The translations under genes were made by a program, and so were the position numbers. A DNA stretch of 64,000 bases from Batkoa obscura (Eukaryota): the NCBI GenBank assembly GCA_030770535.1, contig JASVEC010000001.1, forward strand, positions 186,001 through 250,000. The letters run 5' to 3'. How positions within the stretch are numbered: the first letter of the stretch is position 1; every line of letters starts with the position of its first letter. Under the pieces are notes generated by a model that saw nothing but the letters and a program-made list of their open reading frames with translations, made no database searches and had not been told where the DNA came from. Of this stretch, positions 32,604 to 59,380 are shown piece after piece.

Positions 32604-34329
32604 AAGGGTAATTAGTAAAAAACATTCCCGTTTATTTAAAATTAAATTTACGTTACATAGAAAAGGGTCAAAAAAATACAATGGAAAACTTCATTCTTAA
32701 TTTTAAACAAGGTTTTAAAGCTTCCCATATTTCGGAAAAAGAGACTACTTTGCTTCAAAACTCACAGATTCATGATTTTTATAAAAATTTATTCGAAATC
32801 AATCAAATTTTTTTTGATAATTAAAGTTCCTTTATCTATGCATAGTTGATGATAAATAAAACTACTGTCTTCTAATAAAGTCAGATAAAACTATTATTAA
32901 AAGTAAGACAGCTATATAATATGTATATAAAATTAGCACTAGGCTTCTGTAAAAGATTCTATTCAGTTTTTATAGCTATAAAGTGGCCATATGAATATAT
33001 AGTATAAAGCTAATAAAAACATGATGGAATAGCGTTATAAAGTAAACAATACCATTATTTACTAGCAATGGGTATCTGTATAACGGTGATTATGTTTGAT
33101 AGATAAATAGGATCAATCTCATTATATCCTATTTAATGTTATTATGTGTAATAGACTATAAATACTCAGTTTGTTTTGGATGATAAAAAATACAATCCTT
33201 AGCATTTGAATATCAGGATCATTAATAAGCTGATTGTATATAAATATCTTTTACAAATAGCCATTCTTCACCTTTTTTGTTAAAAAAAAATTCTATAAAT
33301 AGTATATTCCGTTCTTTAGCTATTTAGAATACTAAAAAATATTTAATGAACATACAGCAAATAAGAACAATAAAGAAAAATATCCATTTTTTAGAAATAT
33401 ATGATTTTCTAACTAACAATTAATATTCATACTTTTATAATTTAAAATAGCAGTATAGCAACAGTTTTAAGTAAGCTAAGATCTAGAAAATAAATACCAA
33501 CAGTAAACTATCGATAATAGCGAATTTATAATTATAGTATGAAAATCAATTCATGGGGTGGTTTTTAAGAATAGACACTAATACTTCAGTAATATAGATG
33601 TTCTGATCTTATAGCAATTAAGAGTATTATTATTACAATCGCATTATGAAATAAAAATTATTGGTCAAAACTGTGTTATTTTTGAAATTTAAAACTAAGT
33701 ACCGACAGTAATGATAGCTTATCCATATTAAAAGAATATTACGATAAATCATGTTATTATTAAGGATACTTTATTTCTTGTTATCAAATTATACATGTCA
33801 CATGTATTTTAAAGATATTAAATTATTTTATCTATAAATATCTTTAGTTATCAATGCTTGGTATATCTTTTATTAGTTGTAGAATCACACTATTTAATGA
33901 AAATCATGGTCTAGCCTTTAGAACAAGAACTTCAATACATTATCATTCGTATATTATTAAAATTGAGTATTGCTCAACTATAATCTTCAGTCTTACTATA
34001 AAGCTTCCTACGGCTACCTTTACAAAAATAAATCTAATCTTGAAGTTAAAAGATTCTTCTTATTAAACTTTATTATAGAAATAAGTAAAATTCGCTTATT
34101 AGAAATGTTTATGTTTATTAATATAGTATTGATCTTTAAATTTTTATAAAACAATGAGTCATAAAACGAACCAAAGTAATCAAAAAGATAGAAAACTTTA
34201 AATAGATATAGCGTTCAAAAACTAAATAAAAAGATCTTCATTTATTAATATAAAAATGCCAGAGTAATTGGTTTTTAAACAACGGAGTTTGGTCTATTTA
34301 TATTATTATCACCAACCATAAACACTGCC

Positions 34330-34647
34330 CTATCCTCTTCTTTGAAGTGGTACATCAAGTCCTCTTCTGCCATATGGTCTATAAGCTCCTCTTCTTTCGA
34401 GTGGTATATCAAGTCCTCTTCTGCCATATGGTCTATAAGCTCCTCTTCTTTCGAGTGATATATCAAGTCCTCTTCTGCCATATGGTCTATAAGCTCCTCT
34501 TCTTTCAAAGGATTGAAAAGATCCGATTTTTTGATTTGATGTTACTATTCCTTCAATAGAATCGCTAGGAATAACTGGAGCAGCAACGACAACAAAGTTA
34601 TTGACGATTAAAATAGTAAATAAAGTTCCGATGAAATGAGTATACAT
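34330..34647 (-). CDS. Secreted Kex2-processed repeat peptide precursor A (3x GAYRPYG)
   Basis: Signal peptide and pro region, then RR-GAYRPYG-RR-GLD[IV][SP]L[EQ] repeats (54-bp DNA unit); TATAAATAC about 45 bp upstream. Confidence 0.85.
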   Translation of the reverse strand: MYTHFIGTLFTILIVNNFVVVAAPVIPSDSIEGIVTSNQKIGSFQSFERRGAYRPYGRRGLDISLERRGAYRPYGRRGLDIPLERRGAYRPYGRRGLDVPLQRRG

Positions 34648-35816
34648 GATTTGTTTTTTTATGTTTTAACATCTCTTTATTTACATGTATTTATATGTTT
34701 TTGTTGATGGTTGATGTCTGATAAGGGATATTTTTTTAGAACTATACATCGGATGTGTTTGTATTCTAATTTTTTTATTATCCAATTAATTTTATTTCAT
34801 AATAGAATATAATGCTGTTTATCCTTACTATCACTTTATATCACGCCAAATCACACTTTTGATTCTTAACATCCATATGATTTATTAATATTGGATTATT
34901 TTATATCATGCACTATGAAAATTTGCAAACAATTATTATTTTTTGCTATTATTAATATTTATTTAATTTAATCAAACGCTTGCCTATTAAATAAAGTTTT
35001 GGAATTTATGTTTTGTAAAAAATTCTAAAGGCTAATAATTGAACATCACAATATTATGAATTAAGCTTACCAACTACAAAATATTAATAATACATTTCCT
35101 CCTTTAAACTGATAATTCGATTTCAATGAAATAACTGTATACTAATATTCTAATCTTTATTAGATATATTGGTATGGATCAAAATAGCTCTAAAGAATCA
35201 TTGTTATTTTAGCTTAATTTTGAGTAATACTATAGAGTGAGATTACACTTAAATTTCTGCTAATGCCCTTCTAACCAAAGCTGTTAATAGCCTTCTTATA
35301 CAACGTTCATGTAAAGATGTATATGGGAAGGTATTTTTGTCCAAGCATTTAGCAAATTTTTCTAATTTTGTGGCATAGAAGAACAGAAAAATGATGTATT
35401 TCCATGTTTTAAATTAAAAATAAAAATGTGTTTATTATATTAAAAAAGTGAACCAACTTGTGGATCAAAAAAAGATTGTAACTCAAAAATTATTTAAGGA
35501 TAAGTTCAAGCGTTTTATTAGGGATTTATATAAGATAGATATAATGATCTTTGACTAAAGTTGAATCTTATACAAATAAGCTAGTGTTCAGATATAGACA
35601 GTATAAATCTACAAGCAAATTGTAGAAAATAATTGAGTACTTAGTCTGGCTCACTTTAACTGATGTATTTTTTAGCAAAAGCCGTGAAAAATATGTTAAC
35701 AAAGTAAATCAGACCAAATATAACATAGCTAAAGTTATGATTTTTTATTAACAATGTTATTATGTATAAATGTAAATATGATTGAAAGGATAGAAGGGAT
35801 TAATTTTTGATTGTAT

Positions 35817-35912
35817 GAGGATGTTTTTTTGTTTAAAAATTTTACTAACAGTCTTTCTGCTCAAATAGCGCTTAAAAAATGGAAAAAGTAATGAAACCAA
35901 AAAAACATCCTC
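35817..35912. mobile_element. MITE-A copy
   Basis: GAGGATGT...ACATCCTC ends, family core. Confidence 0.85.
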
Positions 35913-37047: not shown

Positions 37048-37392
37048 CTATCCTCTTCTTTGAAGTGGTACATCAAGTCCTCTTCTTTGAAGTGGTACAT
37101 CAAGTCCTCTTCTGCCATATGGTCTATAAGCTCCTCTTCTTTCGAGTGGTATATCAAGTCCTCTTCTGCCATATGGTCTATAAGCTCCTCTTCTTTCGAG
37201 TGGTATATCAAGTCCTCTTCTGCCATATGGTCTATAAGCTCCTCTTCTTTCAAAGGATTGAAAAGATCCGATTTTTTGATTTGATGTTACTATTCCTTCA
37301 ATAGAATCGCTAGGAATAACTGGAGCAGCAACGACAACAAAGTTATTGACGATTAAAATAGTAAATAAAGTTCCGATGAAATGAGTATACAT
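37048..37392 (-). CDS. Secreted repeat peptide precursor B (3x GAYRPYG, extra GLDVPLQ)
   Basis: Near-identical to precursor A plus one 27-bp unit duplication. Confidence 0.85.
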   Translation of the reverse strand: MYTHFIGTLFTILIVNNFVVVAAPVIPSDSIEGIVTSNQKIGSFQSFERRGAYRPYGRRGLDIPLERRGAYRPYGRRGLDIPLERRGAYRPYGRRGLDVPLQRRGLDVPLQRRG

Positions 37393-38433: not shown

Positions 38434-38533
38434 GGAGGTGCTTTTTTTGGCTTAATCACTTTTTTTATTTTTTGAGCGCTATTTGAGCGGAAAAATCGTT
38501 ACTAAAAATTCTTAAACACAAAAATACATCCCC
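38434..38533. mobile_element. MITE-A copy
   Basis: Family sequence, ATAT TSD. Confidence 0.85.
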
Positions 38534-39362: not shown

Positions 39363-39460
39363 GGGGGTGTTTTTTTTAGCTTCCTTATTTTTTCATTTTT
39401 TAAGCGCTATTTGAGCGGAAAGATTGTTGGTAAAATTCCTAAACAAAAAAATACATCCCC
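39363..39460. mobile_element. MITE-A copy
   Basis: Family sequence, ATAT TSD. Confidence 0.88.
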
Positions 39461-41067: not shown

Positions 41068-41203
41068 TTAGAGAAATTAAATAAAAGAATCCTCATTTAT
41101 TAAAATAAAAATACTAAATCAATCGACTTTCCTATAAGAAACTTGATACAATTAAGCTATCAACGGAATCCATAAGTTCTACCAACGCCTCTTCTACTAT
41201 ATG

Positions 41204-41416
41204 TTATCCACTTCCTCTTCTTTTAAGTGATGCCTCAAATTCTCTTTCACCATACGGTCTCCAACTTCTTTTTTCGAAAGAATTATAAGATCCATTTTCT
41301 TTATTTAATATTATTACTTCTTGGATAGAATCATTGGGAAGTGTTGGAGCAGCAGTAATAACAAAGGTATTAATAGTTAAGATAGTAAATAAAGTTATAA
41401 TGAAATGAATATGCAT
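41204..41416 (-). CDS. Secreted peptide precursor C (SWRPYG), truncated by a frameshift
   Basis: Same signal and pro region as the family. A shifted frame continues ...TYS-RR-GVGRTYGFR* to 41160. Confidence 0.75.
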   Translation of the reverse strand: MHIHFIITLFTILTINTFVITAAPTLPNDSIQEVIILNKENGSYNSFEKRSWRPYGEREFEASLKRRGSG

Positions 41417-42853
41417 GATTTGATTCGATTTTTTTTTAAATTTATTTTAGCTACATTATTAAGTATTTATATATTTTTTAGTACCTTGTATTTGATAGGA
41501 AGCTCGTTTTTATAACTATACATTGCATATATTTGTATCATATATTTTAATACCCAATCATATTTACTTCATAATATAATATAATAGTATTTACTCATAA
41601 TATCATCTTATGTCACATTCGATTGCACTTTCGATCCTTGAAATCTATAAAATTTATCAATATTTGGCTACAATATATCATTTGCTATGAGATTATTTGA
41701 ATATTTATTCTTATTCTTATAATTATCATCAACTATATATATAATTTGATCGCATAGTTATTATTAAGTGGTTTTTTGGGATTCTTATAAATGTGATTTA
41801 TTAGTTCTAAATACGGATGGTAATTGAACACCCCACTTGTTAGAAGATTTAAAATTATGAACTACTCAGCAACAATTTTTATGTATCAATAATGATGCTT
41901 ATTTGTTTATTTCCTATTTTTTAAGTGTTATTAATAGTAAATAATAGAGAGGAAAAATGGTACCTGAAACAGATAAAGAACCTTTACATATGCTCCTTGA
42001 ATACCCTTGCGCATAATATTTATAATTCAAAGCTATCTTCGTCATAAATAGCTATAAAACTGCTACCTCCCTTCATACCACTCAGTTACAACAAGCCTTT
42101 TCTTTTGAACTTTGACATTATTTTACCTACTTGTTTTGTTGGACCTTTCCTCCGGATATGTACCATTCCTACTGTGAATCTTCAACAAATGACTCAGGGC
42201 TTAATTTTTCAGCCTTTAATCTTTACTTTGAACGGCGCATTTTATGGGTTAGTATCGTCTATTTGATTATCAAGCATCCAACCAGGGATGCTTAGAGCAT
42301 TCGCAATATTTTAAAATGGTCTCCCAATCTTTTTTGCAAACTCATTCTAATTTAATAAAACACTTGTACCTTCTGAGTTCAAGATTTTAAAAAAATTGTA
42401 GGAGCACATCATTTTATAAATAACTTTCTATTCTAGCCTTCAAGATAAATAGCTTACTTATTAGATGTATCTATTTAAATTATGTCTATTTATTTAAGGT
42501 TTCTTGGTTAAATAATATTCCATGTTTAATGTGTTAATTGCCATTATAAATCCCAACTTTATCATGAAGCAGTATATGACTGCTATCATAAAAATTTGTC
42601 CAATTTTAAAAATTAATTTTTATTGCAATAATTACTAAAATAAAAATAAAAACAAGGTGTTTATATAATATTCGTCTAACAAGAAGCCTCCAAGTTAAAG
42701 AAATAATATTGTAAGGGTTATGATGTTTAATATATAATCAAAATAGTTAATAGGTATTATGCTTTAAACAAAACAAATAAATGATAAAATAAAATAAAAT
42801 ACAAAGTGGTTGATTTTTGAATAAGAGAGTTTAAACCACCAAAGCTATCATTA

Positions 42854-43054
42854 CTATCCATAGACTCTACCAACGCCTCTTCTACCATATTTTCTACCAC
42901 TTCCTCTTCTTTCAGCAAATTGATGATTTCCATTTTGTTTGTTTAGTATTGCTACTTCTTGAATAAAACCATCGGAAAGTGCAGGAGTAGTAATAACAAT
43001 AAAGCTATTGATGGCTAAGATGGTAAATAAAGTTCCAATAAATTGAGTGTGCAT
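42854..43054 (-). CDS. Secreted peptide precursor D (GSGRKYG, GVGRVYG)
   Basis: Family signal and pro region with RR-delimited heptapeptides. Confidence 0.8.
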   Translation of the reverse strand: MHTQFIGTLFTILAINSFIVITTPALSDGFIQEVAILNKQNGNHQFAERRGSGRKYGRRGVGRVYG

Positions 43055-43174
43055 GCTTTGATTTTTTATAATTTGTTTCGTCTACATTAGTAGGCATTTG
43101 TATGCTTTTTTCAGTAATTGATATCTAATAAGTTTGATTTTTTTACAACTATACATTAAACACATTCATATCAT

Positions 43175-43273
43175 GAGGATGTTTTTTTTGATTTCGTTAC
43201 TTTTTCCATTTTTTAAGCACTCTTTGAGCGGAAAGATTGTTAGTAAAATTCTTAAACAAAAAAATACATCCCC
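43175..43273. mobile_element. MITE-A copy in the precursor D promoter
   Basis: Family sequence, TCAT/TTAT flanks. Confidence 0.88.
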
Positions 43274-43680
43274 TTATATTTACTACTTTCCGATTATTTC
43301 TTCTTCACAATAGAATACAATACCATTTATCCTAACTACCGCCTTAGTCACATCGGATCATAATCTTGATCTATAGTATCTGCAATATTTATAATAATAA
43401 CTTTAATATATAATATATAAAAAGGGTTTTTTAACATTCGTTTTTATCTTTATAAATTGAAACATTTGGTTTATTTAATCAAATACTTACTTTTTATATA
43501 AGATTTTTATATTTGTATTCTATAGAAAAAATTCTGAATGCAAATAATAATTAGATACTATAGTATTATAAAGTAAATTTATCAATTATTTAATCTTAAT
43601 AGTGTAACTTTTTTGAGCTAATAAAAGGATTTTAAACAATATAAACTGATAATATATTTTTTGAATCTTAATAATTATAT

Positions 43681-43779
43681 GGGGATGTATTTTTGTGTTT
43701 AAGAATTTTACTAACAATCTTTCCGCTCAAATAGTGCTTAAAAAATGAAAAAAGTGATGAAACTAAAAAATATATCCCA
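43681..43779. mobile_element. MITE-A copy
   Basis: Family sequence. Confidence 0.85.
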
Positions 43780-45019
43780 AATGCTAAGGATTAAGTACAA
43801 TTGCTTCAGTGTATAATTATATATAGTATGATGATCAACTCTTGTCAAGTTTTTCCATTTACAAAGTCAATATTTGAATATAAATGGTGTAAAACATACA
43901 TATATTAAGCTAGATAAAGTAATTTCATGTAGTATGCTTAAAGTAATCTCATTTTTAGTAATAACATATATCTTTATAATGATCAATGTTTTTGAAAACA
44001 ATAGGGATTGGTTTTCAATTATATTCAATTATGAAGTTGGAGTAGTTGGATAGCAAATTTCAATAATGATAAAAATTAATAGTTACTAATTGACACATTC
44101 ATTATGTGCTATTAAAAATATTAGCTCTAACTCTATTAATTAAGTGTTAAAAAGCTATGAGCTTTAAAAATGCACTACTAGGATCATTATTGAACTTAAT
44201 TACAGATATTATCTATTATTAGTTGCTCTTTAATTCATATTTCAACAACAATTTTCGATTAAAAAGGTATATTCCGTCTGTTGTAAATTTATGTTAATAA
44301 AAATGGTTTATAAACCACAAATAAAGTATTTATAATAGAAACATGATGATGTTTTTAATAAGTATCATATCTTAGAGTAGAATTAAATCCTAGCATTTTA
44401 AAATTTAATAGTTTAAGATAAGAACATAAGGATGTATTCTTAAAAGTTTAATTTCAATACAAATATCAGTAAAAGCAAGCAGACAATTTGACTTTTATAA
44501 ATACTTTGTATTTTTTCCGATTCTATTATAAGCTCAAGTTAATTGGCTGAAATTACTGATTATTTGAAAATATAAAAGTAAATAATGATATTTTTCTATT
44601 GTTAATGGCACATAGCTATAAGTCATGTTAGATAATTAAATGGTTTTATCAATGGCATTTTAAGAATGAGTACTGTTTAAATTCACAAATTATTAATGCT
44701 TCAAATTATATAGAATTTTGACTATATAAGCCCATCCTATCTTTTATTACAAAATCATGCTACATTTTTTATGTTAGAATTAAGATAAAAAGTGAGTTAA
44801 CTAGATCATATCTCCTATTTAATTCAATGAGATAAAATTGTAGTGAAAACAAATAAACGTCAATTAAATCTTTTTTGTAACTTATAATGAAGAAAGACAG
44901 CTTACTTATTAAAAAATTAATTTACATAAAAAACAATAACTTTAAAATCTTTTTAAAGATTAACTACATGTAAATAAAAATTAAATATCAAAAATGTTTT
45001 ATTTAATACATTGATATTA

Positions 45020-45259
45020 TTAACGCCATCCATAGGCTTTACCAATTCCTCTTTTTGAAAATGAAGGGTTGTATATCTTCTTCTTGTTAAATGTAGAAAT
45101 AGAAGCTTCATGATATTCATCCGATAATTTAATTAATTTATCAACATTTGGTATTAATGTTTCTTGATTTGAATGACTAATAGTTACTGGAACAGTAATA
45201 ATAACAAAAACATTAATAGTTAAGATAACAAATAAAGATTTGAGGAAATGAGGATACAT
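45020..45259 (-). CDS. Secreted peptide precursor E (KR-GIGKAYGWR)
   Basis: Divergent family member with signal peptide, a single C-terminal core and the shared upstream TATAAATAC. Confidence 0.75.
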   Translation of the reverse strand: MYPHFLKSLFVILTINVFVIITVPVTISHSNQETLIPNVDKLIKLSDEYHEASISTFNKKKIYNPSFSKRGIGKAYGWR

Positions 45260-45486
45260 GATTTAATTATTTAATTATTAAGTTTGTTTATATTGTCAAG
45301 TATTTATACCCTTTTTTCATACCTTTCAAATTATTGGGGGTAGATGTTTTATAGTGCAGAGTAACTATAGTTTTATGTTTCATGCTAAGCTTTTAATAAA
45401 ATATATTTCTATCCAATTGTTTTTGCTTCAAAATAGAATATAATAATACAGAATCCTTAACATCATTTTAAAATCACATTACATTA

Positions 45487-45583
45487 GGGGATATATTCTT
45501 TTGTTTAAGAATTTCACCAGCAATTTTTCCACTTAAATAGCGCTTAAAAATGGAAAAAGTAATGAAACCAAAAAAACACCCCC
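45487..45583. mobile_element. MITE-A copy
   Basis: Family sequence, ATTA TSD on both sides. Confidence 0.88.
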
Positions 45584-47210
45584 ATTATGTTCTTAATTTT
45601 AAAACTTAATAATATTGTTAAAATTCGACTGTTTTATTAGTATATAATAAATTTCCTTTTAAGATCCTTTTTTTATTAATAATATAATTTTACAGAAAAG
45701 ATGAATTTAATTGAAAATAATGAGAACTAATTTTCAACTGTATTCTATTATAAAGTAGAATTAATTGGGTAATTGTTTTATATTAAAAAATAACTATTAA
45801 ATAGTTGTTGATCAATATAAATAATGTATTCTACTGAAACAACTATCCTTAACTTTATTAATTTTAAATACTAATTAGACATAATCCTTAAAAATATAAC
45901 ATTAAAATTATCACTAAAATAAAAAAATAGTACTTTGATATAAATTTAATTAATAAAAAGTGATTAAAATGGTATACTCTATTTATTTTGTATTTAACAT
46001 AGAAACGATAAGTTAAAAAAACTATGAATTAAGTATAAGTAATAAAAATTTAGTAAAGTTTTTGAAAAATAGTACAACTTAAATATTAATAATATTTATA
46101 AACTTCCATGGCTTTATGTTTAAATAAAGCTATAAGATTAATATTTTCAAATAACTAAACTTAAAATAACATTAAATTTATAAAAAAATAACAATTGATG
46201 AATAAAGGACTATTTAGAATTACATTATATGAAACTGTTGTCTGTATAAGAAACCTTTAAGGATTAAGATTGAATTTTTACAATAGCATAAGTAAGCAGA
46301 CAATTTGACTTTTGTAGATATTTCATCTTTTTTCCAATTTCATTATGAACTAAAATCAATTGGTTGAAATGATTATTGTTAAAACACTAAGTAAACCCAA
46401 ATAGTGATGACAATATATTTATACAGTTGATGGTATATAACTATAGGTCATGATAAACTATTTATTTTAAGGATTGAAGTATAAAATTCAAAATTGAATC
46501 TCTAATAGCATCTACAACTAAGTTATTTAAAACGTATTATTAAATAACACTTTACCTTCCAACTTAATAAATGAATTTTATTATTATTACACATCTATAT
46601 TGGACGCTTCGATTTATTTAAGACAGTTTAAGAACTTGAAGGATATCAACCTATAGAATATCTAAAAAAGGTTGGAAGATTTGGAATATATGGGAATACT
46701 TTGGCAAATAGCTCACTCTTTTTTGGACAGACCAAGGCTCGAACCTCAAATCTTAGGTAGAGGTGTGGTAATGGCTACTTTTATATTAGTAATTTTTATT
46801 ATTATACTGTCATCTCTCATAAATTTGGATTTTTTTTCTTTAGTGAAGTACTTGAAAATAGGTTGGTAATCTAGGGACTATTTAAAAGATTCAAAAAATG
46901 TTAATAGGATAAAAATAAAATCCAAAACTTCAATATGAAATCTTTTTAACATCTTTATTCAATATAAAGCTAACAAGAATGATAAACAGACTTGCCCAAA
47001 ATTTAAAGGTGACAATAAAATTTTATTAAAATATTATAATTCGATTAAAAAAAGGAAATACAATTACCAATTTAAATAATAGATGGAACAAAACTACATT
47101 AATTGAAGGTAATGTATATCAAATATCAATTACAGCGGGAAATTTTTCCAGAATAACTCCACAACAAAACCATTATTAAACCTAATGAATTGGTAATGCT
47201 TCAAGTATAT

Positions 47211-47309
47211 GGGGATGTTTTTTTTGGTTTCGTTACTTTTTCCATTTTTTAAGCACTATTTGAGCGGAAAGATTGTTAGTAAAATTCTTAAACAAAAAAA
47301 CACATCCCC
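47211..47309. mobile_element. MITE-A copy
   Basis: Family sequence, ATAT TSD. Confidence 0.9.
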
Positions 47310-47582
47310 ATATTGTGTTATAAAAAATGAGTTGGTACAATATGATATTATTTTACAGGAAACAGATAAAATACAAACTTAAGATTGATATATCATTAAT
47401 ATTTCTATCGAAACTTACTATTTCATCTACTATTCTAAAAAGAATACTGATTTTAACACCATATATTTCAACAACTTAAAAGCATATATAAAATTTAATA
47501 CTGTTTATTGATAAAAATCCCATAGAGATAATAATTTTGAGAACTTTCTCCACAAGTAGAGTGAGTTAATGTAAAAAAAATG

Positions 47583-47694
47583 TTTTATTACGTTAAAATT
47601 TATAAGATAAAGTTAAAAATAAATATGACACGTAATAATAAAACATTATAAAGTTATTTTTAACTTTATCTTACAGATTTTGCATATAATAAAA
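47583..47694. repeat. Foldback inverted repeat (~40-bp arms)
   Basis: TAAGATAAAGTTAAAAATAA pairs with TTATTTTTAACTTTATCTTA, with imperfect extension outward. Confidence 0.7.
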
Positions 47695-48058
47695 ATAACA
47701 CTTACTAATATATTGACTCTGGTATGAGTTAGAGAAAATAGCAATAACATTTTAATGTAATATATATAGGTAATGTAGTCAAATTTATGTCAACTTTGTA
47801 TTACTAATCATTTGAACTCAATTTGTTTAATTTGATAAATTTTTTATTAGTGGTTGGGATTAGTTTCTCCATTTGAAACCATAACTATTAAAGTTTTCAA
47901 TTGGGGTATTATTTAATTTTTCCAAATTTAGTTATGCAATTTTATTGGCCAAAAATTGTAGCTATTCTCAAAAGTGTCATTTTTAACTCAGATGATGTAA
48001 TTTACTTTAAACTATAAATACCAAGTCCAACTAATTTCCATAAGTACTTTATTTTACG

Positions 48059-48952
48059 ATGTCATTAAAACGTACAGCAACTCTTTACACTGGTGCCAAA
48101 ATCCCATTACTTGGTCTTGGAACTTGGAGATCGGAACCAAATAAAGTAGGAAATGCAGTCAAAGTGGCCTTAGCTGCCGGTTATCGTCATTTAGATTGTG
48201 CATGGATTTATGGAAATGAAAAGGAAGTAGGGGATGCTATTAAAGAATCTGGAGTTCCTCGTGAAGAAATATTTATTACTTCTAAACTTTGGAATTCTTT
48301 CCACCACCCTGATCGTGTTGAACAATGCGTTAATGAAACTTTAAAAAACCTTCAAGTTGGTTACTTGGATCTCTATCTCATTCACTGGCCTACTGCTCAA
48401 CCTGAAGGTCAACATAATTTCCCAAGAAATGCCGATGGTACTCTTTTAATCGAACATGGCTATACACTCAATGATACATGGAGAGCACTTGAAAAATTAG
48501 TTGAAAGTGGAAAAGTCAAACATATTGGTATTTCAAACTTTGGAATTAAAAGTATCAAACAAATTCTATCGGAAGCTAAAATTAGGCCTGCTGCTCTTCA
48601 AGTTGAACTTCATCCTTATCTTCCTCAACCCGAGTTACTTGAATTCTGTAAAAATGAAAACATTCACGTAACTGCATATTCTCCTCTTGGATCTGAGGCT
48701 GTACCAAAAGTACGTGAACAAACTGAAGTTGTTGAAATTGCACAAAGACTTGGTAAAACACCAGCTCAAGTACTTTTAGCTTGGGGTCAACAACGTGATA
48801 CTTCGGTTATTCCAAAATCCACTAATGAAGATCGAGTTAAACAAAATTTCCAAGATATTGAGTTATCCGAGGAAGATATTAACAAAATTTCTAACCTTGG
48901 AATTCATCACCGTTTCGCTGTCCCATCTAAAGAAATTTTCGAAAACTATTAA
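48059..48952 (+). CDS. NADPH-dependent aldo-keto reductase
   Basis: GLGTW, HLDCAWIYGNE, ITSKLW and YLIHWP (D-Y-K-H tetrad), IGISNF, QVELHP, IPKS. Confidence 0.95.
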   Translation: MSLKRTATLYTGAKIPLLGLGTWRSEPNKVGNAVKVALAAGYRHLDCAWIYGNEKEVGDAIKESGVPREEIFITSKLWNSFHHPDRVEQCVNETLKNLQVGYLDLYLIHWPTAQPEGQHNFPRNADGTLLIEHGYTLNDTWRALEKLVESGKVKHIGISNFGIKSIKQILSEAKIRPAALQVELHPYLPQPELLEFCKNENIHVTAYSPLGSEAVPKVREQTEVVEIAQRLGKTPAQVLLAWGQQRDTSVIPKSTNEDRVKQNFQDIELSEEDINKISNLGIHHRFAVPSKEIFENY

Positions 48953-49214
48953 AAAGAGAATTTTAAAAAATAAAATGTAAAATATATCTAATATAGTTGG
49001 AGTTTATTTGATTGTTTTTATTGTTTAATTTAAAGAATATTTTTTGATGATACATATATTGTTTTCAAATAATATTATTCGTTAGTACTTTAGATTCATA
49101 TTACTTTTATGATCATTAGTATACTACATCTTATATAAAAAATTAAGTTATAAAGGTGATTAAATATATTCAAAGCTAATCAATAATGGGGTGTTTTTAT
49201 TATAAACAGATTAA

Positions 49215-50714
49215 TTAATACCATGTCTTTTTACATAATTTTAAAGCTTTAGCTACATTTAAAATACCAAAGCCATATTCATTATTTGGTAATGAAGTAG
49301 CAAGATCTTTACCACAACCAAGAGTTGAATAGTTAGGGGTAGCTGATTCCCTTAAAACTTTAGCAATAAGGTCTACTCTACGATTAAGATGTGGGCAAGC
49401 GGCAATAACCAATAGAGCAGCGCCAGCGACATGAGGGGTAGCCATTGAAGTACCTTGAAAGACCGCATATTTACCACCTGGAATAGAAGAAGTGATATTA
49501 ACGCCTGGAGCGGTGATATCAATAGCAAATTCTGGCCTTTCAGGAACTGGGCCCATTGAAGAGAAAGCAGCTCGATCATTAGATAAATATTTGGAAGCAG
49601 CTACTGTAAATGAAGTAGGTTCTGTAGCTGGTGGGGATAAAATTGAAGAGCAACCTAATTTACCATCATTACCAGCACATACGGACATAAAAATACCAGC
49701 AGATTTTAAAGCTCTTAAAGCATATTTAAAGGTAGATCGACTACATCCTTCTTCTCCGGGACAATAATAAGAATTACCAATAACATGAGGACGAAGTCTA
49801 GGTTTTGGATTCGTTCCATAAAGGTTAGTTGGTGCTAATAAAAATTGTAAACAACCCAAATAAGATTCTGGGGATCCAAAGTTTTGATCCATATTTTTAC
49901 ATGCCATCCAAGGGGTAGTTGGAGATACACCTAAGTTTAATCCACCAACTGCACTACCCATACAATGAGTTCCATGATTATTATCATCACAAGGTACTTG
50001 AGAATCAATACCACATATTTTGTTGGGCTTAGTTGCATTTGCTACCTTGTTAGCGTCCCACCAATAATAATCATGGCTCAATTTGCCATTCTTATTACCT
50101 AAATAATTTTTACTTAAAGCTGGATGCGTAAAATCAACACCAGTATCAGCATTAGCATACCTTAATCTTGATGCTGCCAATGAAACATGACGTGGTATAT
50201 CGGTAGCATTTATATATTTTAAACTCCAATGAATTTCTTTACCATCCCAAGTAGTATCACCAGCTTGTCCAGCCCCTTGTTCACTATTACCTTGTGTAGG
50301 TGCACGAAATTGTTTATTACTTGTAATTTCTTCTACCTCAGGTAACTTAGCAATGGTATCAATCAATTCTTTTGGTGCTTCCACAGCAAAGGTGTTTGAA
50401 ATTAAATAATAACGATAATTTTTAATCAATCCTTTACTTTTTGCTTGATCTAACGCTTTCTTAACATTGGTTTTACTGCTCTCAGAGTGCTTCACTAAAG
50501 TGTTATATACATTTTCTGCATGAAGATCAAGATCTTCTTCAACCATGCTACGTGAGTTTGTTGAAATAGTTGGTGGAGTAGCAGGTGCCAATTGAATAAG
50601 CACTGAAGATAAACCTACTTTGGAATAATCATTGATTACTGATCTGGCTATGGTTTCACTACCAGCCACTGAATATAAAATGGTTAAATTTAAAATAGTA
50701 GATAAAAGCTGCAT
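49215..50714 (-). CDS. Secreted S8 subtilase with I9 prodomain, bacillopeptidase-F-like
   Basis: Signal peptide, ADTG / HGTHCMG / GTSMATPHVAG triad, WMACKNM...CLQFLLAPT motif. Confidence 0.92.
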   Translation of the reverse strand: MQLLSTILNLTILYSVAGSETIARSVINDYSKVGLSSVLIQLAPATPPTISTNSRSMVEEDLDLHAENVYNTLVKHSESSKTNVKKALDQAKSKGLIKNYRYYLISNTFAVEAPKELIDTIAKLPEVEEITSNKQFRAPTQGNSEQGAGQAGDTTWDGKEIHWSLKYINATDIPRHVSLAASRLRYANADTGVDFTHPALSKNYLGNKNGKLSHDYYWWDANKVANATKPNKICGIDSQVPCDDNNHGTHCMGSAVGGLNLGVSPTTPWMACKNMDQNFGSPESYLGCLQFLLAPTNLYGTNPKPRLRPHVIGNSYYCPGEEGCSRSTFKYALRALKSAGIFMSVCAGNDGKLGCSSILSPPATEPTSFTVAASKYLSNDRAAFSSMGPVPERPEFAIDITAPGVNITSSIPGGKYAVFQGTSMATPHVAGAALLVIAACPHLNRRVDLIAKVLRESATPNYSTLGCGKDLATSLPNNEYGFGILNVAKALKLCKKTWY

Positions 50715-51287
50715 TTTATTTTATTTTTTAATCTCATTTTATATCAAAAGTTAACATTTATATAGCCTCCTTTGATTTTCAAATTTTTAGTAAATAAATT
50801 TAGTTTGGGAAATCAAGTCATTTAATTATGCAATGAAATGAGATTTCAACTCAAATGATTTGTCATTGTTTTTAAAAAAAATCATGGGATTTTATTTTTA
50901 TTAAAGGTATAAAGCCTTACAACTCTCAAAACATAAATATATAAAAGTATAATAATGGAATTCAGTTAGGTTTTCATATAAGCTTATATCGTTGTTGGTA
51001 AGATATATCTTTTATATTTTAAATGATAAAAATGTAATCGATTCATTTAGTTAAATTTTGAGGTATAATTGTGTAAATGTGATATTTAAAAATTCTTATT
51101 TTAAGTCATTTAGTAGTTTATTACTAGAAAAATAATGTGACTATACTTGTTTCCTTTAAAATAAGCTATTTTAATGCTAGTAAATATTTTTTTAAGTTAT
51201 ATAAGCTAATAATAGGATACAATACAGCTTTAAAAGATAATAATAAAGTTTCATTTCCTATTCATCGTATTCTTTTTATTTATGCTT

Positions 51288-52777
51288 TTATAATAGCTCA
51301 AAATTTAAATATAAATCTTTAGCTGTAAAGAGATAAACATTTTTTAACTCCAAATCAGAACCATGATATTGTGGTGTACTATTAGGATAGGTTATTTTAT
51401 ATCTCAACAATATCATTACAATTACTACTTTTTGTTCCAGCAATGAAAATTTCATACCAATACAAAGCCTTTCTCCACCACCAAATACTGCCCAAGATAA
51501 AGGATTGATATGGGAATTGCTATTTAAAAATCTTTCAGGTTTAAATTTTTCGGGTTCGCCCCAATACTGTTTGTCCCTGTTAATAGAATAGATACTTAAT
51601 ATAACGTTGGTGTCTTTTGGTATCGTATAATTATCAACTATTACGTCTTTACTAGTTTTTCTTAAATTCAATTCTGGTACCGGTAGATAAAGTCTTAAAC
51701 TTTCTTTGACTACCGCTTCTAAATAATTCATCTGTTTGATTTGATCAATGTTTGGGCAAATTGAATCATAAGAATCACCATTACTATACTTTGTTAACTT
51801 CATGATGTCCATTATTTCTTGTCGTAATTTATGTTGAACGGATGGATTTTGAGCTAGAAAATGAAGGATTACAGATAAACCAAAAGAAGTAGTATCATGA
51901 CCAGCTAATAAAAATATCATTAACTTATCTCGAATTTCTTTCCCGTTAAATTGAATTTCGGGATTTAAAGTAGCTTTTACCATTGACGTTAAAATGTTGT
52001 TGCTATTTTTTATATCATTATTTAATATTTGTTCTTTTTTGTTGTTTATCATTATTTTAAACTGTTCATCTAGTTTATCTAATGACTTGTATACTGATTT
52101 TCTAAATGGATTTTTTGGTGTATCTAAGAAATCAAATATAAAATAAAAGGGATTTGCAGGTTCTCTAGCAACTTGGTTATAACATGTGGTAAACATACAG
52201 TTCTCATTTAATATAGAATCAAAATCAACCCCCATAATCCCTTTCCCTAACGAATTCATAGCAATACCCTGCATATATTTACTGATATCTACCTTTATTC
52301 CATTATATCTATTATCTACCAAATCAAAAAATTGGCACGTATAAGTGGAAAAAATAGATACATCAATTGTTTTTTAAACGGAGGATTTAGTATCATACGA
52401 TGTCTTTTCCATACTTCATAATTTGAAAACCCCAAATTAACGCCCATAAACTTAGAAAATAGTCGATTAGGATCAGCTTCAACTGGTACCACTCTTTGAA
52501 ATGCATTACTATCAGTATATATTTTATGCGCTGCTTCAAGTGATGACAAAGCTACATTCCATATACCATCTCTCCAAACTGCTTGTACCTTATTATCATG
52601 AAGTCGCTTATTGAGTAAACTTTCGATTTTTTTATCTCTAGCTTTATTTTCAAATTGTACTTTGATACATTCAAATAAACTTGGTGAAAGTATATGTTTT
52701 AATTTATTGGGCTTCTTAAGGAAAGAGTAAATCAAAAAGAGTATACCAAGTATCAGGGCCAATGTTAAATACAGCAT
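51288..52777 (-). CDS. Cytochrome P450, interrupted by a 1-nt frameshift at about 52370-52375
   Basis: N-terminal membrane anchor, WKRHR, AGHDTT, ESLR, PERF and FGGGERLCIG. Adding one A to the A6 run joins the two ORFs into ...LNPPFKKTIDVSIFSTYTCQFFDLVDNRY... Confidence 0.85.
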
Positions 52778-53773
52778 TGTGATTTTTTTTGAAAACAATA
52801 TAAAAGTTATTTTTTCGCTTATAGATCTTATTTATACTAAAACAATATCAGGTTTTTATATTCTTTTACATTAAATGTCCAATTAAATCGTGTCATATTT
52901 AAACTCATTTTACTTTGTGATGTTGATATATTTTTCAAAACCTATTACTTATAATAATAAAGTGTAAAACTAGAACATGGTTTATGATCATTTATTTTAT
53001 TTTATACTACAAGTGCCATCCAAATTTACTACTAACAGTATTTTGGTTTTAAAACAAAAGGTTCGTTTCTTATCTATTTCTAAAGCTTTAAAAATATTGT
53101 GTTTAATACTGGTAGTAAAGTATAAAAGGTATATGTACGTTATTCATTTTACTGGAACTTTGTTAAAATTTTTTCTTAAAAGGCTATACACACTTTGAAA
53201 ACTATTAGCGAAAGCTAAGTGCTGTCAAATGTCATCAAAAATTGTTAAAATCTATTAGAAATTCCTAATCTTTTTACAAAGAAATTGACAAAATACCATA
53301 AAGCAGAATACATCTTGAAACATTCAAAAAGTCAAGCCTTGTACAATCGTAACTAGAATTAAGACTTAAACTTATGCAAGAGCTTTGCTTGATCTGATTT
53401 TGTTAGCCCTATGTAATTAGATGATATAACTTTTCAGAGGAAACCAAATGCTATGCATTTAAAATGCCTTCTGTGCTTTCAAGCAACTTTATAAAAACCC
53501 AGTTTGGTATTATTCATTAGGGTAATTCTAATCACCTATTATTCGCAAATTTTAATAACCATTATGATTGAACTGAGTATTAGATAATATACACCAGAAC
53601 ACTTTTTTGTTTTGTTATTTCTTCCGTTTTCTATCCAGCATGAAACAGAAAATTATTCGAGTAAGGGCTTAAGATATTATCTGAATTTTTGAAGTATCCT
53701 TAAAAGTTGATTATAAAGTTGACTGAAAGCTATATGAGTTAAATTTAATAAATTGGAAAGAGTATTTTAATAT

Positions 53774-53908
53774 TAATGCAGATTTGATGGAATGAATCGA
53801 CGTAAGGGTATGAAGTAACTGCCCAATTACTACAATTTTTACATAATTGTAGTAATTGGGCAGCTACTTTATACCCTCACGCTGGTCCACTTAATCAAAT
53901 GTACATTA
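53774..53908. repeat. Long hairpin/foldback (~64-bp arms, 7-nt loop)
   Basis: CGTAAGGGTATGAAGTAACTGCCCAATTACTACAATT pairs with AATTGTAGTAATTGGGCAGCTACTTTATACCCTCACG. Confidence 0.85.
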
Positions 53909-54004
53909 GGAGGTGTTTTTTTGTTTAAGAATTTTACTAGCAACTTTTCTACTCAAGCAGCGCTTAAAAAATGGAAAAAGTGATGAACCCAAAAAAAACT
54001 GCGC
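53909..54004. mobile_element. MITE-A copy
   Basis: Family sequence, right end eroded. Confidence 0.8.
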
Positions 54005-54400
54005 AAGATATATACCATAATTTTATTCTTAGTTTTAACATAAACTTATTGCTTAATCTGTTTTAATAAAAAAATTATTGTTTATATCACTAACTAGAAG
54101 TAACTGCTTCTTTGGATGTTAGTTGCCCTTAGAAATACTTTATTGATACAATGAAATCCTTAAATTTTAATAAGTCATATTTCTCATGATTAACAATCTT
54201 CCAAACCATCATTTCTTAATGCCTTGGTTGAATCTTATTTTATTAGTTTAAAAATAGTTTCTTATGTTTGCATTATGCATACAAATTTTAATTTTATTAA
54301 TGAGTTGATCTATTGTTACCCGTATTTATAAATTCATATTGGATGATTATGATTAAACTTAATAAAATAGAAGAATAAACCTTAAACTAAATAAGCATAT

Positions 54401-54497
54401 GGGGATGTATTTTTTTGTTTAAGAATTTTACCAATAGTCTTTCCACTCGAATAGCGCTTAAAAAATGAAAAAGTGATGAAGTCAAAAAAATACCCCC
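54401..54497. mobile_element. MITE-A copy
   Basis: Family sequence, ATAT TSD. Confidence 0.88.
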
Positions 54498-54790
54498 ATA
54501 TTGTAAAGCTATAGATTGTTAACAAAAACTGATGGATTTAAAAATTAAGGGTTCAACTCAATGTGATAAAAAATGGTAATAAGAATAACTACTATTGTAT
54601 CCTATTATAAAACAAAAATAATTGGCTAATACTGTATCTTAATACAGGTATATCAAATATATAATTATAAAATAAGTCAAGTGCAATAACAGTAACAATT
54701 TAATAGTATCTTTCAATAGTTTATTAGATACGAAAAAAGGGTATAAATACACAATAGTGTAATCGAATTAAATTATAAAAAAATCAAAAC

Positions 54791-55024
54791 ATGTATACTC
54801 GTTTCATTGGAGTTTTATTTACTATCTTAGCTTTGAATACTTTTGCTGTTGTTGCTGCTCCAGCAACTCTCGGTAATTCTGTACAAGGAACAGTAATACC
54901 AAATAAAGAAAATGGACCTCTACAATCTTTCGAAAGAAGAGGAAGTGGTAGACCATATGGTAGAAGGGGATTCTATGAGCCGCTCCTAAGAAGAGGAAGT
55001 GGCAGACCATATGGAAGACGTTAG
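54791..55024 (+). CDS. Secreted peptide precursor F (2x GSGRPYG, spacer GFYEPLL)
   Basis: Signal peptide and pro region, then RR-GSGRPYG-RR-GFYEPLL-RR-GSGRPYG-RR. Confidence 0.85.
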   Translation: MYTRFIGVLFTILALNTFAVVAAPATLGNSVQGTVIPNKENGPLQSFERRGSGRPYGRRGFYEPLLRRGSGRPYGRR

Positions 55025-55231
55025 TGATGTAAATGTATCAAATAAAGCATTATCAATACATGAATTTATATTTATTTGCAGTTTATTTTAAAATGATCTT
55101 AAATTTATTATTTTTGTAAATCAAATTTTTATTAAATAATTGCCCTTTTTTATTTAAACTTAGATAAATAATTTGATTGCTGTTATTTATCATAAGTCTA
55201 ATTTTAATGATGAGCTTTTCAAACTACATAT

Positions 55232-55329
55232 GGGGATGTATTTTTTTGTTTAAGAATTTCACTAACAATCTTTCCGCTGAAATGGCGCTTAAAAAATGGA
55301 AAAAGTGATGAAGCCAAAAAAACACCCCC
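55232..55329. mobile_element. MITE-A copy
   Basis: Family sequence, ATAT TSD. Confidence 0.9.
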
Positions 55330-55503
55330 ATATATAGGTTAAGTACGCTTTTCTACAGTTAATTCTGAGAGCGGTTTTTTTATCATAAAACAATGTATAT
55401 ATAATGACGATATTAGGTAAATTAATACTCAATTCCAATATAAGCATTAAAGCTATTTACTTTCAAAAGTAACAACATTTTTGGATATTTTAAATAATTA
55501 TAT

Positions 55504-55600
55504 GGAAATGTTTTTTTGATTTCATCGCTTTTTCCATCTCTTAAGCGCTATTTGAATAGAATAGCGGCTAGTAAAATTTTTAGTAAAAAAATACACCCCT
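55504..55600. mobile_element. MITE-A copy (diverged)
   Basis: Family core TTAAGCGCTATTTGA. Confidence 0.7.
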
Positions 55601-55787
55601 ATATATTACAATTTTAATATCATCAAATCAAATAGAAAGTGCGATTTAGCTAATAGAGTTTGAATAAGCTAATTATTGATATTTTAGCACATGATATTGT
55701 GAATTTTTCATCTTAATCTTTAAAATAAATCATCTAACATGACTTATATCTATGTACCATTAGCAATATATAGGTATCATTACTATC

Positions 55788-57577
55788 TACTTTTATATTT
55801 TCAAATAATCAGTAATTTCAGCCAATTAACTTGAGCTCATAATAGAATCGGAAAAAATACGAAGTATTTATAAAAGTCAAATTGTCTGCTTGCTTTTACT
55901 GATATTTGTATTGAAATTAAACTTTTAAGAATACATCCTTATGTTCTTATCTTAAACTATTAAATTTTAAAATGCTAGGATTTAATTCTACTCTAAGATA
56001 TGATACTTATTAAAAACATCATCATGTTTCTATTATAAATACTTTATTTGTGGTTTATAAACCATTTTTATTAACATAAATTTACAACAGACGGAATATA
56101 CCTTTTTAATCGAAAATTGTTGTTGAAATATGAATTAAAGAGCAACTAATAATAGATAATATCTGTAATTAAGTTCAATAATGATCCTAGTAGTGCATTT
56201 TTAAAGCTCATAGCTTTTTAACACTTAATTAATAGAGTTAGAGCTAATATTTTTAATAGCACATAATGAATGTGTCAATTAGTAACTATTAATTTTTATC
56301 ATTATTGAAATTTACTATCCAACTACTCCAACTTCATAATTGAATATAATTGAAAACCAATCCCTATTGTTTTCAAAAACATTGATCATTATAAAGATAT
56401 ATGTTATTACTAAAAATGAGATTACTTTAAGCATACTACATGAAATTACTTTATCTAGCTTAATATATGTATGTTTTATACCATTTATATTCAAATATTG
56501 ACTTTGTAAATGGAAAAACTTGACAAGAGTTGATCATCATACTATATATAATTATACACTGAAGCAATTGTACTTAATCCTTAGCATTTGGGATATATTT
56601 TTTAGTTTCATCACTTTTTTCATTTTTTAAGCACTATTTGAGCGGAAAGATTGTTAGTAAAATTCTTAAACAAAAAAATACATCCCCATATAATTATTAA
56701 GATTCAAAAAATATATTATCAGTTTATATTGTTTAAAATCCTTTTATTAGCTCAAAAAAGTTACACTATTAAGATTAAATAATTGATAAATTTACTTTAT
56801 AATACTATAGTATCTAATTATTATTTGCATTCAGAATTTTTTCTATAGAATACAAATATAAAAATCTTATATAAAAAGTAAGTATTTGATTAAATAAACC
56901 AAATGTTTCAATTTATAAAGATAAGAACGAATGTTAAAAAACCCTTTTTATATATTATATATTAAAGTTATTATTATAAATATTGCAGATACTATAGATC
57001 AAGATTATGATCCGATGTGACTAAGGCGGTAGTTAGGATAAATGGTATTGTATTCTATTGTGAAGAAGAAATAATCGGAAAGTAGTAAATATAAGGGGAT
57101 GTATTTTTTTGTTTAAGGATTTTACTAACAATCTTTCCGCTCAAATAGTGCTTAAAAAATGGAAAAAGTAACGAAATCAAAAAAAACATCCTCATGATAT
57201 GAATGTGTTTAATGTATAGTTGTAAAAAAATCAAACTTATTAGATATCAATTACTGAAAAAAGCATACAAATGCCTACTAATGTAGACGAAACAAATTAT
57301 AAAAAATCAAAGCATGCACACTCAATTTATTGGAACTTTATTTACCATCTTAGCCATCAATAGCTTTATTGTTATTACTACTCCTGCACTTTCCGATGGT
57401 TTTATTCAAGAAGTAGCAATACTAAACAAACAAAATGGAAATCATCAATTTGCTGAAAGAAGAGGAAGTGGTAGAAAATATGGTAGAAGAGGCGTTGGTA
57501 GAGTCTATGGATAATAATGATAGCTTTGGTGGTTTAAACTCTCTTATTCAAAAATCAACCACTTTGTATTTTATTTT
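55788..57577. repeat. Right arm of the ~1.8-kb inverted duplication
   Basis: Reverse complement of 42790-44580 with only scattered substitutions; contains MITE-A copies at 56589-56687 and 57095-57193. Confidence 0.92.
57314..57514 (+). CDS. Secreted peptide precursor G (identical protein to D)
   Basis: Identical 66-aa translation; the stop is TAA here and TAG in D. Confidence 0.8.
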   Translation: MHTQFIGTLFTILAINSFIVITTPALSDGFIQEVAILNKQNGNHQFAERRGSGRKYGRRGVGRVYG

Positions 57578-57846
57578 AATAAATGATATTTTTATTTTGT
57601 ATTGTAAATTATCTATTTTGTTTTAAGTACCTTATTTTATTATATTAATTTAGCCATATATTGATGTTCATTGTTTTTGGTATAATATATAGTTTGTACT
57701 AATATACCTTAAAAGTTTGTTTTAAAGGTTTAAATGTTCAACATATTGAACACTGACTAGTCAGTTAGCAATAATTAAAAAGCTACTAAAACAACCAAAT
57801 GGAAGAGAACCATTTTCATGTATTTATTTTATAAATAGTTAAATTT

Positions 57847-59380
57847 TTAATAAGATTGAATGCTTTCTAGACTCAAATCTTTAGTCTCTGGTACAAAAAA
57901 GAAACAAATAATAAATAAGATCAAATTGAGTATTAAAAAGACTATAAAACTATAACCTTGAATTAAATTATATATCATTGGAAATAAAAATCCAATAATA
58001 AAATTCAGCCTAATAAAAATACATTAATATATGAACTAATATGGTATAATAGAAATATACTTACAACCAACTCACAACTAACGAACTCGATGATATGATA
58101 TTCAAATAATTAGTAGGTACCAGTTCAGGTAACAGAATATAAGATATTGGTAGCAAAGTAAATGAAAATGTAAATATATATAATACCACTAAACAAATCA
58201 CCATTAATAAATATAAACATAATAATTAAATAAACTTACTTGCAATTAATTGAGATAAACCATTATCAAAATGAAAACCTAAAATTAAGCATAACCAAGA
58301 TAATACTTGAATAATTATACCAAATAATAGCATTTTACGTTTACCAGTAAAATCTAATACTATGGAACATAATATTGAAGCTAATAAAGATACTAATGTA
58401 ATAAACATATTTCCGTAAATGATGACTGACTTTGGTAAATAATTCTCTAATATAATGGAAGAATAATACAAGATTGCTGAAGTACCACATAATTCTTGAA
58501 ACGAAACTAGTAAAAATGCTAGTAAACACTTTTTGAATAAAAACTTATTTTTAAAGATTGACTTCAATTTATACATTAACAGACTCTTGTTATTGTTCAG
58601 TATTAACTCATTAGCTTGTTGTTTCTGATTATTTATGAATTGTATAATTTCTTCCAATTCCTCATCAACACTATAACCTTTTCTTAATTCTTTCAAATAA
58701 GATTCGGCTTTTGAAATATTAGTATTATCAATTAATAACACATTTCTTGGTGAAGGTATCAAAAAAGGTATAAAGAATAATTGAAATATCGAAATAACTA
58801 AAGGTATACCCAATAAATATCTCCAATATAAATAAGAATCGACTACAATTGGAAATAAATTCGATAAAAATAGACCAATTGATAAAGAGATGGCAGTTAA
58901 TGAAGATATTATATTACGATATTTAATAGTTGCTATTTGAACTAAATAAGTTGGTAAAGCCACTGTAATTAACCCACAGCTGATTCCAAGGATAAATCGA
59001 CTAATAACTAACATAGCACTATTATAACTAAACACTAATATCAATTCTCCCAGAACAAAAAACAGTACTTGTATATAAAATAATAATTTAAAACCAAATT
59101 TAAATATTAGTTGACTACTCAATATTGCTCCTACGATTGCTCCTAAAGCCAAAACGCCAATTATAAAACCCCACATTAAGTCATCACCAACATAGATACA
59201 ATCCAATGTCTTACCACAATCACTTATTATACTTATCATCAAATTTGAAATGCCTATACTGTACCCTGCATTGATACCACCTAATGAAACAATGAGGCTA
59301 TTTAATACCAATTTTGAGTTTAGTTTAGCATTTAATGAAGAAGGTAAATCTTCTAAATGATTACTTGGTTTCGTTTTCAT
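57847..59380 (-). CDS. MFS sugar-porter family transporter, 3 exons (introns 58189-58239, 58010-58064)
   Basis: Multiple TM helices, FQELCG and DFTGKR motifs. The spliced C-terminus gives LLPELVP and VPETK before stop 57847-57849. Confidence 0.88.

Follow-up and report, generated by a model that had tools for sequence, protein, structure and literature searches.

The closest described counterparts of the locus considered here are the KEX2-processed repeat proteins (KEPs) of fungi. According to the accessible text of a survey of genomes gathered in 2019, 78% of KEPs have no DUF3328 nearby, DUF3328 was not found outside Ascomycota and Basidiomycota, and Zoopagomycota carry 11.6 KEPs per strain; Conidiobolus coronatus, the sole Conidiobolus named there, has 19, several of them in runs with near-consecutive accessions (PMC7329392). 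Le Marquer 2019, in its accessible part, gives 11 for C. coronatus (PMC6339444), and the KEP peptides detected so far outside dikaritins are linear, as far as the accessible sections of PMC9769878 report. Our literature search found no study of KEP products in Zoopagomycota. Here we analyze 64,000 nucleotides of the fungus Batkoa obscura (contig JASVEC010000001.1, positions 186,001 to 250,000; this whole stretch is the window), in which seven intronless open reading frames (ORFs) of 66-114 amino acids, A-E on the minus and F-G on the plus strand, encode predicted secreted precursors. The reading that we favor, at a probability of roughly 0.6, is that these genes form a paralogous precursor array that grew by tandem and inverted duplication and yields linear 7-residue peptides, likely secreted signals, and that the enzyme genes lying among them are probably bystanders. 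An earlier note on this DNA had instead proposed a cluster for peptides made on ribosomes and modified after translation (RiPPs).

Precursors and their predicted peptides

The window consists of fungal DNA that is rich in AT (21-34% G+C per 2 kb) and poor in introns. Its minus strand carries precursors A (34330-34647; 105 aa, a leader and three GAYRPYG units alternating with three acidic heptapeptides), B (37048-37392; 114 aa, a near-copy of A with one acidic unit more and diverged flanks), C (41204-41416; 70 aa), D (42854-43054; 66 aa, with GSGRKYG and GVGRVYG) and E (45020-45259; 79 aa, the most divergent, with the lone C-terminal core GIGKAYGWR); F (54791-55024; 77 aa, with two GSGRPYG and one GFYEPLL) and G (57314-57514; the same sequence as D) lie on the plus strand. 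In this allele C ends after its first unit, with a stop at 41204 following that unit and GSG, and more core-like codons stand in another frame. The places and strands at which the earlier note had put seven related secreted precursors were borne out by the ORFs found and by alignment of a hydrophobic leader common to all of them. Its seven paralogs stand as a count of genes; they comprise five sequence types, with no nucleotide difference between D and G and one in 315 between A and B. All seven leaders reach a mean Kyte-Doolittle value of 2.4-3.0 over 11 residues within the first 25, which makes the signal peptide a hydropathy-based prediction.

Starting with the final seven pro-region residues, precursors A, B, D and F consist of 9-codon units (seven residues plus RR), and Tyr-bearing basic heptapeptides alternate in the precursors with acidic or neutral ones. 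Two or three like cores lie between RR sites in A, B, F, D and G, and one in E and in this C allele; a DNA pattern for RR-G-x-x-R-x-Y-G-RR-G matched nine times in the window and never in any of 100 shuffles. Leader and RR-bounded units together uphold the proposal of Kex2-type precursors in an early-diverging fungus. Dibasic cleavage would release as basic products GAYRPYG (six copies), GSGRPYG, GSGRKYG and GVGRVYG (two each), GIGKAYGWR and a 14-15-residue SWRPYG peptide, and as acidic-type products GLDIPLE and GLDVPLQ (three each), GLDISLE and GFYEPLL. The earlier list was correct for GAYRPYG, GSGRPYG, GIGKAYGWR and SWRPYG, counted GSGRKYG and GVGRVYG once instead of twice, and missed the acidic heptapeptides. 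Every basic core contains Tyr, two positions after a mostly basic residue, and Gly is the last residue ahead of RR in 10 of the window's 14 Tyr-bearing cores.

By analogy with KEP biology, the leader would take the precursor into the endoplasmic reticulum, an unlinked Golgi kexin would cut after each RR or KR, and a Kex1-type carboxypeptidase would trim the basic residues, leaving basic Tyr-bearing (GAYRPYG-type) and acidic (GLDIPLE-type) peptides in about equal numbers and without ring closure. More tentatively, the basic peptides might serve as receptor ligands, like alpha-pheromone, for class-A-like G protein-coupled receptors (GPCRs) of the fungus itself or for those of its host. Heptapeptides with a charge of about +1 are unlikely to be membrane-lytic toxins, and short, weakly charged, multi-copy and fast-varying peptides seem somewhat closer to pheromones or hormones. 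Rhodopsin-family GPCRs are numerous in this lineage, with 125 in C. coronatus and 28 in Conidiobolus obscurus (accessible text of PMC12387763) and 99 genes in Entomophthora muscae (accessible text of PMC11105155).

Precursors A-F have no Pfam match, MF_alpha included. ESM Atlas matches to an alpha-factor cluster (0.81, for A) and to a PatX cluster (0.78, for F) are leads only. In A (34333-34497, minus strand) 12 of 21 bases agree, in register, between basic and acidic 7-codon units, and both unit types may descend from one 27-bp unit. RGSGR, which we take to be the PatS/PatX signal motif of cyanobacteria, spans a cleavage site in F (54938-54952), D (42893-42907) and G (57461-57475); the likeness is probably chance, and Kex2 cleavage would take off the first Arg.

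Relatives, duplication and decay of the array

A word-indexed protein search (36-200 aa, 3278 candidates) returned three matches, all from Neoconidiobolus thromboides FSU 785, and a hidden Markov model (HMM) search of 1.84 billion representatives returned seven, four of them from the same strain. The other three HMM matches, unrelated and low-scoring (E 1.7e-4 to 5.8e-4), were rejected because they have neither leader nor cores, so that neither search found a precursor homolog outside N. thromboides. Metagenome scans were made as well: with the precursor alignment 21 pattern matches arose and none was confirmed, and with the core DNA pattern there were six, all Arg/Gly-rich and lacking leader or repeat.

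F, the cytochrome P450 and the subtilase are consecutive genes in FSU 785 (KAI9290957-59), all on a single contig of 12,752 bp; a contig of 12,383 bp holds D, C and an A/B-like gene (KAI9290928-30), and a G-like gene (KAI9292979) lies on a contig of 47,306 bp. Judged by sequence, this common layout is that of a single species or species complex and is no test of a cluster. Identity between window and FSU 785 is 87% for F (KAI9290957), 77% for C (KAI9290929) and 64% for D/G, and 99% for the subtilase. Going by the subtilase and P450 proteins, the window's DNA would be that of N. thromboides or of a close relative in Entomophthorales. The F cores are the same in both while the leader has changed. 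Elsewhere the cores vary: KAI9290929 continues through two more cores past the stop seen in the window, the inner RR site of D/G is lost, and the final Gly has become Ser, Asn or Arg in several cores. Tyr is kept throughout, and its invariance, claimed earlier for the window, holds in both genomes. The public model of KAI9290930 joins an A/B-type leader to a shifted repeat frame, and the annotated protein thereby hides the cores.

D and G sit in the left (42768-44637) and right (55728-57600) arms of an inverted duplication of 1873 bp at 98.5% identity. The A/B block including its flanks is 81% identical, against the single difference in 315 coding nucleotides, and the D/G pair of FSU 785 is identical over 75 compared residues, yet only 64% like the pair in the window. 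Because the coding parts have stayed alike where A/B flanks diverged, and the D/G pairs alike within each genome but not between them, gene conversion or repeated recent duplication would be the simplest cause of the near-identical pairs. The earlier note had read the bracketing of the enzymes by precursors as a sign of a cluster; that arrangement is what an inverted duplication of precursors across a few neighbors would leave.

Full copies of a conserved block stand 165-270 nucleotides upstream of all seven precursors (34774-34869, minus strand, for A). Seven partial blocks scoring above the best of 10 shuffled windows occur in intergenic DNA between 33.6 and 56.4 kb, with none elsewhere in the window. 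A putative decayed eighth precursor copy (46549-46704, plus strand) has a partial block at ~46337 and aligns locally to D (z 7.1, a score not reached in any of 200 shuffles); a contig of X2, one of the RNA-like sequencing runs described below, spans 46482-46788. Seven other stretches behind orphan blocks were examined for decayed precursors, of which five gave nothing; the other two are doubtful AT-rich matches, one to C (33750-34100, z 4.1) and one to D (44620-44900, z 3.4). X2 also holds two C alleles, of which one, on a single contig, has the window's exact sequence over the stop and the other is distinct. The pattern is that of a birth-and-death array. Ratios of nonsynonymous to synonymous change (dN/dS) among paralog leaders are 0.48-1.07 in five of six pairs and 3.9 in one, values too noisy, at 50 codons each, to call selection.

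Recombination between the inverted arms of 1.87 kb could flip the segment that they enclose (44638-55727, with E, the three enzymes and F); the assembly of FSU 785 appears broken thereabouts, as the separate 12,752-bp contig suggests. An element resembling a miniature inverted-repeat transposable element (107 bp, e.g., 47207-47313; 24-nucleotide terminal inverted repeats, 92% complementary) occurs 20 times in the window, 13 times within 33-58 kb, and reaches a very high depth in the runs that look like DNA.

Transcription and neighboring genes

None of the 12 sequencing runs listed is recorded as RNA; X2, X7 and X12 are RNA by guess, and silent intergenic bins that stay empty in these three are filled in DNA-like runs. 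In these three runs, which come from three studies, A/B is covered and the flanking bins are empty, while a DNA-like run covers 30 of 30 bins in the same region; read contigs of A and B are indistinguishable. Over 40.9-55.7 kb, both X2 and X7 have gene-shaped contigs on C, the aldo-keto reductase (AKR), the S8 subtilase and the P450, and X7 has further contigs on E and F. Transcription of A/B, C, E, F and the three enzymes is thus likely. Contigs carry no expression level or co-expression, and depth was not used for ranking; the pieces listed include no contig of D, which is not evidence of silence.

The AKR gene (48059-48952, plus strand) encodes an AKR1A-like aldehyde reductase without signal peptide, a probable bystander. 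The tailoring role once suggested for it is not borne out, its best solved relatives being cytosolic aldehyde reductases (E 1.6e-88). The subtilase (49215-50714, minus strand; 99% identical to KAI9290959), also a probable bystander, is a secreted S8A protein with motifs DTG, HGTH and GTSMATP and with I9 and S8 as its sole domains. Kexins (S8B) are distinguished in the accessible text of PMC6169396 by DDG, HGTR and GTSA-SP motifs and a P domain; by that standard the protein, with motifs of the S8A kind and lacking a P domain, is no kexin, and the role in releasing the cores once suggested for it finds no support. It has seven matches in FSU 785, on contigs of seven different lengths, and is hence one of at least seven paralogs; E. 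muscae and Massospora have homologs of 45-57% identity, but no detectable precursors. The bacillopeptidase-like S8A group C of Entomophthorales is marked by its grouping with S8A proteins of bacteria and early fungi, apart from proteinase K. The subtilase may or may not belong there: its next matches after Entomophthorales are chytrid and bacterial, and the accessible text of PMC6169396 lists no Conidiobolus thromboides member and no I9 domain in that group.

Family membership of the P450 was assigned correctly in the earlier note. The gene (51288-52777) lies on the minus strand, starts at 52777 instead of 52274 and has a frame broken near 52364-52373, where there is no intron. Its two pieces are 91% and 93% identical to KAI9290958 (496 aa, open at the break point). 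At the break, contigs from 4/4 runs show a single-base difference to the window; in X2, where several genes are exact matches to the window, the differing contig accounts for 8.7 of a depth of 16. The break may be a real heterozygous null, or else an assembly error. The protein has an N-terminal membrane anchor, and the class II P450 topology places the active site on the cytosolic side. Among the best 60 of 148 PDB matches, the closest structures are CYP3A, CYP97-type and CYP4B1, and no bacterial peptide-crosslinking P450 appears. The major facilitator superfamily (MFS) gene (57847-59380) does follow G as described earlier; it is a sugar porter (PF00083 at 161 bits vs 72 for MFS_1) in three coding pieces on the minus strand, convergent with G, and a probable bystander.

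The conserved upstream motif scores 34-38 before the precursors and at most 9.6 before AKR, subtilase, P450 and MFS genes, like 11 other genes of the window. A Pfam scan of the 25 main ORFs and of 126 among the 170 intergenic ORFs (>=38 aa), blind to exons <38 aa, found no DUF3328, tyrosinase or methyltransferase family; the remaining 44 intergenic ORFs mostly overlap precursors, annotated genes, the duplicate arm or repeat copies. The intergenic ORFs gave a transporter exon and two UPF0172 exons and nothing else. The absence of DUF3328 nearby, as the earlier note had it, is therefore confirmed for these ORFs; as a sign of a new pathway it carries no weight, being usual outside Dikarya and in the 78% of KEPs given in the accessible text of PMC7329392. 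Eight peptidase genes are present in the window: one M64, two M14, four trypsins and the S8. Because the enzymes belong to ordinary families and lack the precursor upstream motif, and because the subtilase has several paralogs and is one of eight peptidase genes, we regard them as probable bystanders.

Elsewhere in the window, two M14 carboxypeptidases are inverted and four trypsins stand in tandem (15251-19187 and 21702-29417), two of the trypsins being 95% identical in DNA. Minus-strand genes encode an M64 (IgA-peptidase-like) protein (3056-4837) and a polysaccharide deacetylase whose tail is acidic and rich in Ser, Glu and Pro (11813-12841); overlapping broken ORFs without Pfam match (9377-11087, minus strand) are probably a decayed transposase, and a 290-bp repeat beside them has further copies at 16642-16932 and 32057-32348. 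Housekeeping-type genes flank the array, with ribosomal protein L16 on the left (30749-31474, minus strand) and the UPF0172 exons plus a dual-specificity phosphatase on the right (59841-60530, plus strand; 62819-63664, minus strand).

Competing explanations and known systems

Several observations weigh against an array of linear signals with bystander enzymes. Processing, linearity and signaling of the peptides are all predicted. Core sequences change between strains in cleavage sites and final Gly with Tyr constant, and a modification site would be kept alike. At reported gene densities, the chance of finding a P450 among four neighboring genes is about 5%, and that of an S8 gene 1-2%; the P450 share of the gene set is 1.2-1.3% for C. 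obscurus and C. coronatus, according to the accessible text of the sources (PMC9026835; PMC6032100; gene count PMC6339444). The P450 has no close paralog (next match 45%, among four matches), as a dedicated enzyme might show. Absence of the upstream motif before the enzymes is weak evidence, the motif having been built from paralogs that share it by descent. An intronless rhodopsin-family (7tm_1) GPCR gene lies 27 kb from the array (6279-7262, minus strand), with nothing tying it to the peptides.

The RiPP cluster of the earlier note would work independently of DUF3328: the P450 would oxidize or cross-link the invariant Tyr, AKR and subtilase would tailor or release the cores, and the MFS protein would export them. 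Consistent with it are the consecutive F, P450 and subtilase genes on one FSU 785 contig, the constancy of Tyr, the roughly 5% chance of a P450 neighbor, the contigs of precursors and all three enzymes in the same RNA-like runs, and the accessible account of a P450 in the ustiloxin pathway and of a reductase and a transporter in the asperipin cluster (PMC6514808). That linkage, however, is seen within one species or species complex only, and in E. muscae and Massospora the homologs closest to the subtilase and to the P450 are on separate contigs, a weak point, orthology being unproven. A P450 anchored with its catalytic domain in the cytosol and a leaderless AKR would not meet a lumenal precursor, the subtilase is no kexin, and the MFS protein belongs to the sugar porters. 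In this haplotype the P450 reading frame is interrupted, and its pieces are 91-93% identical to FSU 785 vs 99% for the subtilase. Cores and spacers, moreover, are separate Kex2 units, so no recognition sequence would stay attached to a core. We consider such a cluster quite improbable, and equally so the fuller version in which the locus would be the first RiPP family of Entomophthorales, an adjacent membrane-bound P450 acting on the Tyr of an invertible, gene-converting precursor array. A secreted oxidase would suit the lumenal route better than the P450, and unlinked secretory oxidases such as tyrosinases might act on Tyr, which follows a mostly basic residue by two positions, to give peptides with DOPA or dityrosine that serve in the spore coat or in adhesion. 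By the accessible text of PMC12387763, C. coronatus has 55 tyrosinases and C. obscurus has 24, yet none was found among the window ORFs scanned; a free 7-mer with one Tyr cannot form a network, and fast core turnover is unexpected of structural material, which leaves this explanation hardly probable.

Gly before a dibasic site is the animal amidation signal, and the Gly-Arg-Arg end of 10 of the 14 Tyr-bearing window cores could mark host-directed mimics of insect neuropeptides. The fungus infects insects and the cores vary fast between strains; however, FSU 785 has cores with Ser, Asn or Arg in place of Gly, and the accessible part of PMC6529398 reports that PAM, the enzyme of amidation, is lacking in all fungi. 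Such mimicry seems to us rather unlikely. A repeat family in decay, largely neutral and with products of little function, would account for the truncated C allele, the decayed copy, the orphan upstream blocks, the 13 of 20 MITE-like copies in the region and the noisy leader dN/dS values. We hold it to be very unlikely, as seven open frames have kept leaders, RR sites and the 7-residue register, RNA-like cover recurs in three studies, and the F cores are the same in window and FSU 785 though the leader has changed.

If the array does encode linear secreted peptides, it supplies exact peptide masses to seek in a culturable insect pathogen; the calculated [M+H]+ values of the unmodified peptides are 783.378 (GAYRPYG), 693.332 (GSGRPYG), 724.374 (GSGRKYG), 707.384 (GVGRVYG), 756.414 (GLDIPLE), 741.414 (GLDVPLQ) and 838.435 (GFYEPLL). 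Fast, concerted evolution in a lineage with many rhodopsin-family GPCRs of orphan ligand would make peptide signaling in early-diverging fungi testable. Were the P450 to modify the peptides, it would open a new route to fungal RiPPs; present evidence is not in favor. Our literature search found no publication carrying GAYRPYG, GSGRPYG, GSGRKYG or GLDIPLE, nor any on this precursor family.

Compared with biarylitides and cittilin, which we take to be bacterial P450-modified RiPPs, the locus likewise pairs short Tyr-containing cores with a nearby P450 gene, but the P450 here is a membrane-anchored eukaryotic CYP3/CYP4-like protein and the precursors would take the secretory route. With dikaritins (ustiloxin, phomopsin, asperipin-2a) it shares a Kex2-type precursor with Tyr cores and P450, reductase, peptidase and MFS neighbors; it differs in that no DUF3328/UstYa or tyrosinase was found in the scanned ORFs, the peptidase is S8A and not S41, and the MFS protein is a sugar porter, in a host outside Dikarya with no conserved cluster shown. 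Ascomycete alpha-type pheromone precursors resemble the array in their prepro leader and in identical short repeats freed by Kex2/Kex1 without ring closure, whereas the array has no MF_alpha and no Ste13-type XA/XP spacers, and has 7-residue cores and seven paralogs with differing cores. KEPs come closest (accessible text of PMC6339444, PMC7329392 and PMC9769878), sharing a signal peptide, repeated short units between dibasic sites and no DUF3328 nearby. In all features testable from sequence the precursors are KEPs, and with no Pfam match they would form a new sequence family, a call that leaves C. coronatus KEP types 300 and 328 uncompared by repeat sequence. What sets them apart among KEPs is the alternation of two kinds of heptapeptide, cleavage sites that are mostly RR, and members with one or two units.

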